The translations under genes and the position numbers were made by a program. Source: Pelosinus propionicus DSM 13327 (GTDB taxonomy: Bacteria > Bacillota > Negativicutes > DSM-13327). From it: 64,000 bases of DNA. Each line of letters begins with the position of its first letter. Position 1 is the stretch's first letter. The DNA lies in NCBI RefSeq assembly GCF_900114615.1, contig NZ_FOTS01000012.1, positions 1 to 64,000 of the forward strand. Direction: 5' to 3'. The notes under the pieces are model-generated. The model did not search any database and was not told the DNA's origin. It saw only the letters and a list, made by a program, of their open reading frames with translations. Below are positions 31,193 to 39,135 of this stretch, piece after piece.

Positions 31193-32998
31193 TTACCCGA
31201 AGATGACAGTATTAAGTGCCCTAGTCAGAGCTTGCGCACTAGCGATGTTAGTACCAGTAACAGTAATACGGATTTCATAAGTGTGCACACCTGCAGTAGG
31301 AGCATCAATCCAAGTGAGGTTGGGAATTTCGCTCAGTACACGTGCTGTTGCTGGTACGTTATCTTCTGCTTTTTCGACAGTGATCGTGGATATAGCAGCT
31401 CCATCCAAAAATAAACTATAAGTGATGGTATATTGGTAAGGGGTAGCGGCATCTGTCGTTACTTCTACTTCTACCATGGAATCTAGTTTTAAAGATTGAC
31501 CGGCAGTCGTTGTGAGCCCAAGAGAAAGTACTGATGTTTCTGTTGTAAGTGTAAGCGCAGCTGGGGTAACGGACTGCACGAAATTAAAGGTACTTCCAGG
31601 ACCAGTTGCACCTGTAGGACCGGTTGGGCCTGTATCGCCAACATCACCAGTAGCTCCAGTGGCCCCAGCAGCACCCGGTGCACCTGTAGCTCCAGTAGCA
31701 CCAGTGCTGCCAGTAGGACCTGTTGCTCCTGTGTCACCAATATCGCCAGTAGGCCCAGTATCACCTGTAAGACCAGTCACGCCAGTAGCTCCAGTAGCTC
31801 CAGTAGCTCCAGTGGCTCCAGTAGCTCCCGTATCGCCAATATCGCCAGTAGGTCCAGTATCACCAGTGGCACCAGTAGCTCCCGTAGCACCCGTAGCGCC
31901 CGTGGCACCAGTAGCCCCATCAATTCCGACATCACCCGTAGCTCCCGTAGCTCCCGTAGCACCAGTAATACCAGTATCGCCAGTAGCACCAGTAGCGCCT
32001 GTAATGCCAGTAGGACCGGTAGCGCCAGTTGTGCCGGCAGCTCCAGTTTCGCCTGCAAGCCCTGCAGCTCCAGTAGGACCGGTAGCGCCAGTTGTACCCG
32101 TAGCTCCAGTTTCGCCAGTAACGCCTGCAGCGCCAGCAACGCCTGTAGCTCCAGTAGGACCGATAGTGCCAGTAGCGCCGGTAGCTCCAGTCGTGCCGGT
32201 AGGGCCAGTTACGCCTGTTATGCCAATACTGCCGGTAGTACCAGTAGCGCCAGTAGAACCGGTTGCCCCTGTTGCACCAGCGGTTCCGGCTAATCCCGTA
32301 GGTCCTGTAGGGCCAGTGTTGCCAATCGCTCCGTCAGTGCCGGTGGGTCCAGTAGGGCCTGTAGGTCCAGTAGCGCCAGTAGTGCCAGTAGCTCCAGTAG
32401 CTCCGTTTTCGCCAATATCTCCAGTAGGTCCGGTCGCTCCAGTAGGTCCAACGCCAGTAGCACCAGTAGCTCCAGTTGCTCCAATGCCAGTAGCACCAGT
32501 AGGACCAGTAGCTCCCGTAGCTCCGATACCCGTGGCGCCAGTAGCACCAGTAGTTCCCGTAGGTCCTGTAGATCCGGTAATACCCGTAGCACCGGTACGT
32601 CCAGTTGCTCCAGTAGGACCAATCGGACCCGTATCACCCGTATCGCCAGTAGTTCCAGTAGGACCAGTAGAACCCGTAGTGCCAGTAGCGCCTGTACGTC
32701 CAGTAGCCCCAGTTGCGCCAGTTGCTCCGGTTGCTCCTGCAGTTCCTGCAGTACCAGCAGGACCGCTATCTCCAGTGGCACCAGTAGTGCCGGTGCGGCC
32801 AGTGGCACCAGTCGGTCCAATTGATCCAGTTGCGCCTGTGATGCCAGTAGGACCGGTAGCGCCAGTAGCGCCAGTTGCACCGGTGCGCCCTGTAGCTCCA
32901 TTTGCTCCTGTAGCTCCCGTTGCTCCAGTTGGGCCTGTAGGGCCAGTTGCACCATCTGCACGAAGCAGTATTTGATCAGAATCGAATAAATCTTTCAT
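31193..32998 (-). CDS. BclA-like collagen-triple-helix-repeat (GPT/GAT) glycoprotein with C-terminal globular (BclA C-terminal/TNF-like) domain, copy 1
   Basis: Start [16 protein letters not shown] after a GGAGGTG RBS. About 145 GxT triplets, then a roughly 140-aa non-repetitive C-terminal domain. Confidence 0.8.
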
Positions 32999-33064
32999 TA
33001 AAAAAAGACACCTCCAAGTCATTGTGTGGATTGCTTGAATCTTATAATATGGCTAACCAATGTT

Positions 33065-33103
33065 ATAATATGATAAGTGCAGTAGATATGTGATTATGTT
33101 AAT
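33065..33103 (-). promoter_or_regulatory. Sigma-K-type promoter ATTAACATAATCAC-N17-CATATTATA for collagen gene 1
   Basis: On the coding strand this matches the AC-N17-CATANNNTA mother-cell consensus. The same 14-nt upstream motif and exact 17-nt spacer recur upstream of copies 2 and 3. Confidence 0.45.
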
Positions 33104-33179
33104 GATATAAAATATTGAGTCAATTGTATTCCATAGGAATTAGTGCTTTTATATAAAAGAAATGTTGAAACAAAGCTGT

Positions 33180-36823: not shown

Positions 36824-36884
36824 ATAAATAGAACACCTCCGAATAATTGTATGCCCTAATAGAAGGGAAAATGCTAACCTGCTA

Positions 36885-36924
36885 TATCTTATGCAAAATT
36901 TTAAAAAAGTGTGATTATGTTAAT
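36885..36924 (-). promoter_or_regulatory. Sigma-K-type promoter ATTAACATAATCAC-N17-CATAAGATA for collagen gene 3
   Basis: See 33065-33103. Confidence 0.45.
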
Positions 36925-37137
36925 AAGAATTGTTTCATTTAAACTAACTATTCAATTTTTAATCTGAATGATATCACGATAGATTAAGTTAGATTGTATG
37001 CTATATTGAAAGCAACAATAACGAGTATGTTAATGAAATATGATGAAAGACATCAAATATAGATAGAGGAATGGAAGAATGCGCCGTTTTCCATTCCTCT
37101 ATCTTGTAGTGATATTGTAAGGCAGTTTTATAATTTT

Positions 37138-39135
37138 TTAATTTAAACGTGTAATAGTAACTTGTGCTGCTAGAGAAGGTGACAATGCTGTTGTAATGCT
37201 AATGAGAGAGTTGTTTCGTAATGTAATGACGTCACCAGCTGTTAGGGATAAAATTGCCTGCCCGGAGATTTCGCCCACAGCAACTAAAGCAGAAATAGGT
37301 GTAGAAGCATTCACTATTCCATTTATTGCGATTGCTATTTGGGCACCAATTCCAGCAGTTATAAATGCATTGTAGGCAATCTGGTAAATACCAGTAGTGG
37401 TTACAGTTATGGCTGTGGCAGCTGGAGTATGTGTAACATTTGCAAGAGGGCCATTATTGCTAAAGGGAATGTCGGCACCGCCGAGAATGGTAGCATCTAG
37501 AAGAGTAGCAAGTTGATAAGCATATCCAAAAGCAGCTAATCCTGCCCCTGTTGCTCCCGTTGAGCCAGTAGGTCCGGTAGCACCTGTTTCACCGATATCA
37601 CCAGTAGGTCCTGTATCGCCTGTTGGTCCAGTTGGACCTGTAGCTCCCGTGGCACCCGTAGAACCAGTAGGTCCAGTAGCACCAGTATCGCCCACATCTC
37701 CCGTAGGTCCAGTAGCACCAGTCGGCCCGGTAGGACCTGTAGCTCCGGCAGCTCCTGTGGGTCCCGTAGGTCCAGTAGCACCGGTATCGCCAATGTCTCC
37801 CGTAGGTCCAGTAGCGCCCGTAGGCCCGGTAGGACCTGTAGCTCCCGTGGCACCAGTTGAGCCAGTAGGTCCGGTAGCACCGGTATCACCGACATCGCCT
37901 GTTGGTCCAGTATCTCCAGTGGAGCCAGTGGGTCCGGTAGCACCAGTCGCTCCAGTTGAGCCAGTAGGTCCGGTAGCACCCGTGTCACCGACATCACCAG
38001 TAGGTCCTGCATCGCCTGTAGGTCCCGTAGCACCAGTCGCTCCAGTGGATCCCGTAGCTCCAGTAGATCCAGTCGCTCCAGTAGGACCAGTGGCGCCTGT
38101 ATCACCAATATCGCCTGTAGGACCCGTATCACCCGTAGGTCCAGTAGGCCCAGTAGCGCCAGTAGCGCCAGTAGAACCAGTAGGACCGGTAGCGCCTGTA
38201 TCGCCTACGTCGCCAGTAGGTCCAGTTTCTCCAGTAGGCCCAGTAGGTCCAGTAACTCCGGCAGCCCCTGTAGGTCCTGTAGGTCCAGTGGCACCAGTTT
38301 CACCTACGTCTCCCGTCGGTCCTGTATCACCTGTAGGTCCAGTAGGTCCAGTAGCTCCAGCAGCTCCAGTAGGCCCAGTAGGACCGGTAGCACCTGTATC
38401 GCCCACATCACCCGTAGGTCCCGTATCGCCCGTCGGTCCAGTTGGTCCAGTAGCACCGGTAGCCCCCGTGGAACCGGTAGGCCCAGTAGCTCCGGTATCT
38501 CCTACATCGCCTGTAGGTCCAGTGTCACCCGTCGGTCCAGTTGGTCCAGTAGCACCGGTAGCCCCAGTGGAACCAGTAGGTCCAGTGGCTCCTGTATCGC
38601 CGATATCGCCAGTGGTGCCAGTAGCACCCGTAGGTCCTGTGTCGCCGGTAGAGCCAGTAGCTCCGGTAGCACCTGTTACTCCAGTTGGTCCAATCGGTCC
38701 ACCCGAGGGTCCCGTAGGTCCAGTAGGACCGGTAGGCCCAGTAGCCCCCGTCGGTCCTGTAGGTCCCTCTCCATATTCGCCAGTAGGTCCCGTAGGTCCA
38801 GTTGGCCCAGTAGGTCCCGTAGGTCCAGTCCCTCCCTCTCCATATTCACCTTGAGGTCCCGTAGGTCCAGTCGGCCCGGTAGGTCCGGTAGGTCCAGTCC
38901 CTCCTTCTCCATATTCACCTTGAGGTCCCGTAGGTCCAGTCGGCCCCGTGGGCCCCGTAGGTCCTTCTCCATATTCGCCAGTCGGCCCCGTAGGTCCGGT
39001 CGGCCCGGTAGGTCCGGTAGGTCCGGTAGGTCCTGTAGACCAGCCATTATTACAGCAGTTTGCTGAAGATGAGCATAATGGAAATGTAGGTACTGTAGGT
39101 GAGAATCTAAATATTGAATTATCGTAAAAGGACAT
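37138..39135 (-). CDS. BclA-like collagen-repeat glycoprotein, copy 4 (distinct Cys-containing N-terminus, GEYGEG interruptions)
   Basis: Probable start [11 protein letters not shown] (ATG 39135) after an AAAGGAGGT RBS. The ORF track extends to 39231. GPT repeats carry periodic GEYGEG(P/G)TGPTG blocks and a C-terminal globular domain. The promoter differs from copies 1-3. Confidence 0.75.

Follow-up and report, generated by a model that had tools for sequence, protein, structure and literature searches.

A tandem array of four BclA/BclB-type collagen-like genes beside an SgtA-type glycosyltransferase gene in Pelosinus propionicus, a likely spore-surface gene cluster

In Clostridioides difficile the bclA1-3 genes are controlled by sigma-K, from promoters with AC at -35 and a sigma-E-like -10 element (PMC3789822), and the bclA genes of this organism vary mainly in their collagen-like region (PMC13188886). 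The glycosyltransferase (GT) SgtA transfers beta-O-linked N-acetylglucosamine (GlcNAc) from UDP-GlcNAc onto threonine residues of BclA3 collagen-repeat peptides, and is required for the GlcNAc epitope of the spore surface (PMC7157674). Several diverse BclA-like collagen paralogues with variable repeats are also found in Pasteuria (Pcl/Ppcl), where they are thought to form an adhesive spore nap (PMC6238073). Here we describe four collagen-like genes, P1 to P4, and an adjoining GT gene of the SgtA type in Pelosinus propionicus DSM 13327. They lie within a stretch of 64,000 nucleotides (contig NZ_FOTS01000012.1, positions 1 to 64,000), referred to below as the window. We consider it likely that together they make up a sporulation-specific cluster, encoding four collagen-like glycoproteins of the BclA/BclB family and the glycosyltransferase that modifies them.

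The host belongs to the family Sporomusaceae of the Negativicutes and is a diderm spore former, an anaerobe of soil and termite gut. There has so far been almost no molecular study of the spore surface of diderm Firmicutes. The Negativicutes are not genetically tractable, and a related member, Acetonema longum, has been reported to have an exosporium (PMC7985256).

Gene layout and C-terminal heads

Four intact long open reading frames (ORFs) are arranged head-to-tail on the minus strand between positions 31193 and 39135 of the window. A sequence-only reading of this DNA had taken them for four same-strand GxT collagen paralogues, and this was borne out, since an ORF was found in each place and all four matched Pfam Collagen (E 1e-54 to 1e-65; 3.4e-65 for P4). 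Every protein consists of a leader of 14-34 amino acids (aa), a collagen tract of 373-498 residues and a globular C-terminal head of 133-171 aa. P1 (31193-32998, 601 aa) has a leader of 15 aa, a tract of 453 residues and a head of 133 aa, while P2 (33180-34751, 523 aa) has a 16-aa leader and 373 collagen residues in front of a BclA_C head. In P3 (34931-36823, 630 aa) a 14-aa leader and a tract of 445 residues are followed by a 171-aa head of the BclB/BclA3 type, and in P4 (37138-39135, 665 aa) a Cys-containing leader of 34 aa and a tract of ~498 residues precede another BclA_C head. The ribosome-binding site (RBS) is GGAGGTG for P1, P2 and P3 and AAGGAGG for P4; in P1 it stands before the second ATG, and the RBS positions refine the start of P1 to 32998 and that of P4 to 39135, the latter in agreement with the end coordinate given by the sequence-only reading. 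Each protein has 121-163 Gly-X-Y triplets with a GxT share of 78-87%, chiefly GAT and GPT, and offers 99-139 GxT sites. The RBSs, the promoters and the globular-domain matches fix the minus strand as the coding strand of the array. Long plus-strand ORFs (e.g. 31512-32975) were rejected as genes, being reverse-complement artefacts of the repeats.

A Pfam scan assigned the heads of P2 (E 3.5e-40) and P4 (E 1.1e-18) to BclA_C (PF18573), although the two are only 27% identical to each other; the same scan did not detect BclA_C in P1 or P3. When a profile of this BclA_C-type head was compared with the PDB, it matched C1q-related factor (1.4e-4) and the NC1 domain of collagen X (1.3e-3). P3 alone carries the BclB-related C-terminal domain of NCBIfam (TIGR03721), with a value of 4.1e-62 and 209 bits against a cut-off of 93. 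Its head is ~66% identical to that of C. difficile BclA3 and 72-79% identical to BclB proteins of the B. cereus group, and its database relatives, one of them from Pelosinus sp. HCF1, are named exosporium glycoprotein BclB-related. Many of the database relatives of this head type are flagged 'partial'.

The 133-aa head of P1 belongs to no Pfam or NCBIfam family and has no sequence match in the PDB. We were able to find 25 homologues of it, in spore formers, and its AlphaFold2 model (pLDDT, the predicted local distance difference test, 96.5) has a jelly-roll fold of the TNF/C1q/BclA kind. The alignment of this head was also searched against a representative library; about 88 columns of the resulting profile were collagen, and most of the 77,029 matches were merely collagen proteins. 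Profile-profile comparison detected no sequence relation of either the P1 head or the BclB-type head to BclA_C. The heads of P1-P4 are of three sequence-unrelated families, which are alike at the fold level only.

The sequence-only reading had spoken of divergent BclA-C/TNF-like heads, which is correct for the fold, but at the sequence level BclA_C accounts for just two of the four. The reading was to be given up if the heads did not fold as BclA-like jelly rolls. It passed this test, for P1 by a confident model, for P2 and P4 by membership of BclA_C and for P3 by the BclB-related domain; a C-terminal head with a TNF/C1q-like jelly-roll fold is present.

Structure comparison of the P1 and P3 heads also brought up phage tail-fibre and receptor-binding domains (8ke9, 9k09 and 9f4b). 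These would suit prophage tail-fibre or receptor-binding genes that carry collagen repeats and C1q/TNF-like tips, an explanation which we rejected on gene context and to which we give next to no credence. Phage genes are absent on both sides of the array, several Pelosinus species keep the locus in synteny between housekeeping genes, and, as described below, each gene has a sporulation-type promoter of its own and the array has a probable SgtA orthologue attached to it.

Promoter motifs and the adjacent glycosyltransferase

A motif of the form AC-N16-17-CATAnnATA was observed 60-95 nt upstream of the start of each of the four genes. These motifs fit the sigma-K consensus, with AC at -35 and a sigma-E-like -10 element. 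A search of both strands of the window (128 kb) for CAC-N15-17-CATAnnATA returned exactly four sites, against 0.57 expected; there is one for each collagen gene, always on the correct strand. The motif before P4 reads AC-N17-CATAGTATA (39176-39203, minus strand) and is conserved in the Pelosinus locus L001. The upstream regions of P1, P2 and P3 have in common an exact 13-mer, TTAACATAATCAC, which overlaps the -35 element. Together with the sigma-K-type motif this box occupies 36885-36923 before P3 (CATAAGATA), 34818-34856 before P2 (CATAGTATA) and 33064-33102 before P1 (CATATTATA), all on the minus strand. The promoter motifs are conserved before the orthologues in three other Pelosinus species (loci L001, L002 and L004).

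Terminator-like hairpins on the minus strand follow P4 (37061-37104; 16-bp stem, -27.6 kcal/mol, z -6.6) and P3 (34876-34910, then UUUCUCU; -29.3 kcal/mol, z -5.7). A further hairpin on this strand, with a 13-bp stem and no U-tract (z -4.35), lies between P1 and the GT gene at 31110-31142, and no stable hairpin was found 3' of P2. Since each gene has its own promoter motif and hairpins stand after P4, P3 and P1, the four genes look like separate late mother-cell transcription units, as far as such motifs can indicate.

The GT gene (30001-31077, minus strand; WP_090935069.1) directly adjoins P1 on its downstream side and is read from the same strand. Its 358-aa product has an N-terminal GT-A domain of family GT2 (Pfam Glycos_transf_2, 2.9e-25) and C-terminal tetratricopeptide (TPR) repeats. 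On a C. difficile contig with a BclA3-type gene, a 357-aa GT2+TPR protein is encoded immediately upstream of that gene, and the two GTs are 49% identical over 355 aa with no gaps. The architecture of GT-A plus TPR, the size of ~358 aa and the bclA-type neighbour are all as described for SgtA (CD3350). The GT of the window is probably an orthologue of SgtA, and is predicted to glycosylate P1-P4.

We also asked how often such a GT stands near a collagen gene elsewhere. Homologues with at least 39% identity lie no more than 10 kb from a GxT-collagen gene in 31 of 43 loci, and no more than 1 kb away in 22 of the 43. The loci come from Pelosinus, Desulfosporosinus, Desulfotomaculum, Clostridium, Thomasclavelia, Lysinibacillus, Sporosarcina, Priestia and Paenibacillus. 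The pairing of SgtA with collagen proteins that C. difficile shows is conserved in the Negativicutes, the Clostridia and the Bacilli.

Just downstream of the GT gene there is a 35-aa ORF (MGFGCGRHGGNNWSVIIIIIILLFAFCGDDSSACY; 29801-29908, minus strand) with a strong RBS, AAAGGAGG, and a sigma-K-type motif of its own, AC-N17-CATACTATA, at 29949-29976. It has 81-83% amino-acid identity to counterparts on two other Pelosinus contigs (L003 and L065), and no match to it was found in Pfam or NCBIfam. Its product may be a small hydrophobic sporulation protein.

Leaders, repeat tracts and surroundings of the array

The leaders of P1-P4 are short and hydrophilic, and run directly into the collagen tract. 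An RADG leader motif had been ascribed to three of the genes by the sequence-only reading. The ending '...RADG' is indeed shared by P1 and P2, but by these only; the P3 leader is related to the P1/P2 type but distinct, and the 34-aa leader of P4 contains cysteine, in a CC motif. The Cys-free leaders of 14-16 aa follow the patterns M.D.LLD..Q.LLRAD and MKSPDFD.LLRQEV, and the P1-P3 proteins have no cysteine anywhere. Judged only by eye, 'SPTVPTFP' in P4 resembles the Bacillus sequence 'GPTLPPIPP'. The BclA proteins of C. difficile also lack the exosporium leader motif of the Bacillus type, so this motif defines a Bacillus subgroup and not the whole BclA/BclB family.

A further comparison is offered by L-BclA, which is collagen-like, has a BclA-C head and an N-terminal CC motif, and lacks the exosporium leader (bioRxiv 10.1101/2023.10.23.563578). 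The Pelosinus leaders likewise lack it, and that of P4 has a CC motif. It could be argued from this that P1-P4 form tip fibrillae or 'ruffles' of endospore appendages, as L-BclA/F-BclA do on the Ena fibres of Bacillus, rather than a nap anchored in an exosporium. We regard this as improbable. The l-bclA gene shares an operon with ena3A (DUF3992) and cotZ (bioRxiv 10.1101/2023.10.23.563578), whereas the flanking genes that we scanned (thioesterase, murI, GT, GH18-like and polysaccharide genes) include no DUF3992 or CotZ gene. The complete absence of cysteine from P1-P3 also speaks against it, and no appendages of Pelosinus are reported in the literature that was searched.

The collagen tracts bring up another possibility, that P1-P4 are collagen-like adhesins of the vegetative cell surface, of the Scl1/Scl2 or Lcl kind. 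The SclB, SclA and Lcl models of NCBIfam score strongly, and P4 reaches 378.5 bits on NF038329 (LPXTG-anchored Scl2/SclB) against a cut-off of 325. However, these scores arise from the collagen repeats alone, in several separate stretches. No Sec signal peptide, LPxTG motif or membrane anchor was found in P1-P4, the heads are BclA_C, BclB-type or TNF-like and not Scl V-domains, and the promoters are of the sporulation type. In a diderm cell an adhesin would in addition need a route of export through the outer membrane, and none is encoded nearby. This explanation was rejected on the lack of a signal peptide or LPxTG, and we hold it to be very unlikely.

Elsewhere in Pelosinus the three leader types (A, B and C) are found again, but they stand before different heads. 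A head of the P1 type follows leader A in the window and leader B in L001. The BclB-type head occurs with leader B, A or C (A in L004, C in L002), and in L004 the P4 type of head is preceded by leader B. These combinations, which differ from species to species, point to modular reshuffling. In other genera, the collagen genes next to homologues of the GT encode leaders of quite another kind, which are Cys-rich or are long helical 'preface' domains. The number of collagen genes at the locus is two in L002, four in the window, four in L001 and at least five in L004. A fifth head type replaces the P4 type in the array of L001.

A fifth collagen gene was observed at the same locus in other Pelosinus species (1889-4000 in L001; 2-1720 in L004). 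Its head of 131 aa ends in ...TPIQANITII and matches none of the heads of P1-P4.

A more far-reaching view would have the P1 head as a new, unannotated family of TNF-like domains on the collagen proteins of spore formers, and the Cys-free leaders of 14-16 aa as a new signal for anchoring at the spore surface, specific to Pelosinus or to the Negativicutes. If this were true, the locus would be a cassette system that recombines leaders and collagen stalks with heads of four or five unrelated families, and changes in gene number (2-5 per species) would diversify the spore surface. We put it forward tentatively, and consider it rather doubtful in this full form.

A repeat scan of the array was dominated by a periodicity of 9 bp. 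Longer units were identified with Tandem Repeats Finder: a 72-bp repeat in P2 (33619-33891; 3.8 copies, 95% identity), a 99-bp repeat in P3 (35883-36157; 2.8 copies, 93% identity), and in P4 both a 99/198-bp module (37553-38637; ~10.7 copies, 73-74% identity) and a 69-bp repeat (38714-39033; 4.8 copies). The 3 x 72 bp repeat at 33637-33852, which had been called perfect, is real but not perfect, since the first two copies are identical and the third differs from them by a single mismatch. The longest exact self-repeats measure 133 nt in P2 (offset 72), 58 nt in P3, 41 nt in P4 and 26 nt in P1; long exact DNA repeats are confined to P2, those of P3 and P4 being shorter. Recent gene conversion among the paralogues was considered and rejected, there being no exact DNA match longer than 26 nt between genes.

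Across Pelosinus species, the collagen tract has 448-459 residues in genes with the P1-type head, 298-391 with the P2 type, 326-499 with the P3 type and 450-498 with the P4 type. Variation in tract length between the species is real for the P2, P3 and P4 types and small for the P1 type. The repeat tracts had been described as hypervariable; such variability is shown here between species only.

A warning that short reads might mis-assemble the array proved well placed. In an independent short-read assembly of this strain (Logan, SRR4181676), two contigs that agree with the window at 100% identity both break off inside tandem repeats, at 33664 in the 72-bp repeat of P2 and at 38917 in the 69-bp repeat of P4. 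A metagenome scan with the GT yielded one further Pelosinus-like contig, which ends just upstream of the GT gene. Exact-sequence look-up in a collection of 15 billion proteins and in a gene index returned none of P1-P4, though the genes on both sides of them are present. Public data seem to under-represent or truncate collagen genes of this sort systematically. In practice, such arrays fragment short-read assemblies, and automated annotation can mislabel proteins like P4.

The G+C content is 51-53% over the collagen array and ~38% in its flanks. On one side the array is bordered by a thioesterase gene and murI (glutamate racemase, WP_090935086.1), and on the other by the GT gene, a GH18-like gene and a polysaccharide cluster; its position between murI/thioesterase and the GT gene is kept in other Pelosinus. 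The plus-strand cluster at 19334-29694, which adjoins the array, is itself conserved and syntenic in other Pelosinus. Its products are a UDP-glucose/GDP-mannose dehydrogenase, an 882-aa protein with three polysaccharide-deacetylase domains, a 613-aa GT2 protein resembling chitin and hyaluronan synthases, an uncharacterised protein of 622 aa and a GH18-like lipoprotein, and it may make a GlcNAc-based polysaccharide. Further away, the window holds outer-membrane uptake genes at 2817-7247 (a TonB-dependent receptor, a protein with a TonB C-terminal domain and a periplasmic binding protein), of which the TonB-dependent receptor and TonB genes fit the diderm envelope of the Negativicutes. An RNA-repair-type cluster at 10009-16183 comprises two RlaP-family (DNA polymerase beta-like) genes, an SPFH/Band 7 gene, an RtcB ligase and a WYL-domain protein.

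A putative glycosylated spore nap and its relation to known systems

The following sequence of events would account for the cluster. Late in sporulation, RNA polymerase with sigma-K in the mother cell would transcribe each gene from its own promoter, as the motifs suggest. Since P1-P4 have no secretion signal, they would stay in the cytoplasm of the mother cell. There each jelly-roll head would trimerise and nucleate a GxT-rich collagen triple helix, by analogy with BclA. At the collagen geometry of 0.286 nm per residue the predicted stalk lengths are ~107-142 nm, which exceeds typical Bacillus naps. The SgtA orthologue would add beta-O-GlcNAc to the GxT threonines, to judge from its 49% identity to the characterised C. 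difficile enzyme. The short N-terminal leaders would finally fix the fibres to the outermost spore layer, forming a glycosylated nap with four kinds of tip. A location of P1-P4 at the spore surface is suggested by the sigma-K-type motifs and by the adjacent SgtA orthologue.

Several points weigh against this proposal. Agreement with the consensus is the sole reason for the putative assignment of the four promoters to sigma-K. Searches of the leaders against NCBIfam and Pfam at E <= 10, which included the Bacillus exosporium leader model, gave no match; since the leaders match neither this nor any other family, the attachment step is one that we purely infer. The model of the P3 head is of moderate confidence (pLDDT 76.6). 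The region 33665-38916 is without support from an independent assembly, so the exact repeat numbers could be wrong. Finally, nothing published on Pelosinus spore surfaces was found in our literature search.

The protein family, its architecture, the likely regulation and the partnership with a GT are already known from Bacillus and C. difficile, and the array does not overturn current understanding. What is new is modest. A diderm spore former has four tandem genes whose heads are of three families unrelated in sequence, one TNF-like family of heads is without annotation, and short Cys-free leaders appear to be shuffled among heads between species. The locus supplies concrete candidates for the outermost spore filaments of Negativicutes and for the enzyme that would glycosylate them.

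The sgtA-bclA3 locus of C. difficile is like that of Pelosinus in its GT (49% identical, with the size of 358 aa and the GT-A and TPR parts found for SgtA), in the head that P3 shares with BclA3 at 66% identity, in the GxT-rich collagen tract, in the sigma-K-type promoter motifs and in the placing of the GT directly beside a collagen gene. The two differ in gene number, with a tandem set of four collagen genes and four different heads in Pelosinus against a single gene in C. difficile, and in that the GT lies downstream of the array in Pelosinus but upstream in C. difficile. The BclA3 leader has ~45 aa and is rich in Cys and Asp, in contrast to the Cys-free leaders of 14-16 aa of P1-P3. The Pelosinus tracts also run to 370-500 residues, and the host is a diderm Negativicute.

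Pasteuria resembles Pelosinus in having several diverse BclA-like collagen paralogues in one spore former, but it is an obligate parasite and Pelosinus is free-living. Heavy contamination with Pelosinus has been reported for the Illumina data behind 17 'Pasteuria penetrans' Ppcl genes (bioRxiv 10.1101/485748), so that part of the Ppcl set may in truth be collagen genes of Pelosinus. That P1-P4 are themselves among the published Ppcl sequences was rejected, because the N- and C-termini listed for Ppcl show no match to them. The array differs from the L-BclA/F-BclA tip fibrillae in that neither an Ena (DUF3992) nor a CotZ-type gene adjoins it among the flanking genes scanned, and from streptococcal Scl1/Scl2 in that P1-P4 have neither the N-terminal signal peptide nor the LPXTG sortase anchor.

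With BclA and BclB of Bacillus anthracis and B. cereus, P1-P4 share the build of a leader, a GxT collagen-like region and a TNF/C1q-like head, which is trimeric in that system, and P2 and P4 match BclA_C while P3 matches the BclB-related model. Unlike the Bacillus proteins, they have leaders that do not match the exosporium leader, their genes are in a tandem array, and near this array there is an SgtA-type GT instead of genes for rhamnose or anthrose biosynthesis. The predicted products of P1-P4 look like the hair-like coating of anthrax and C. difficile spores.

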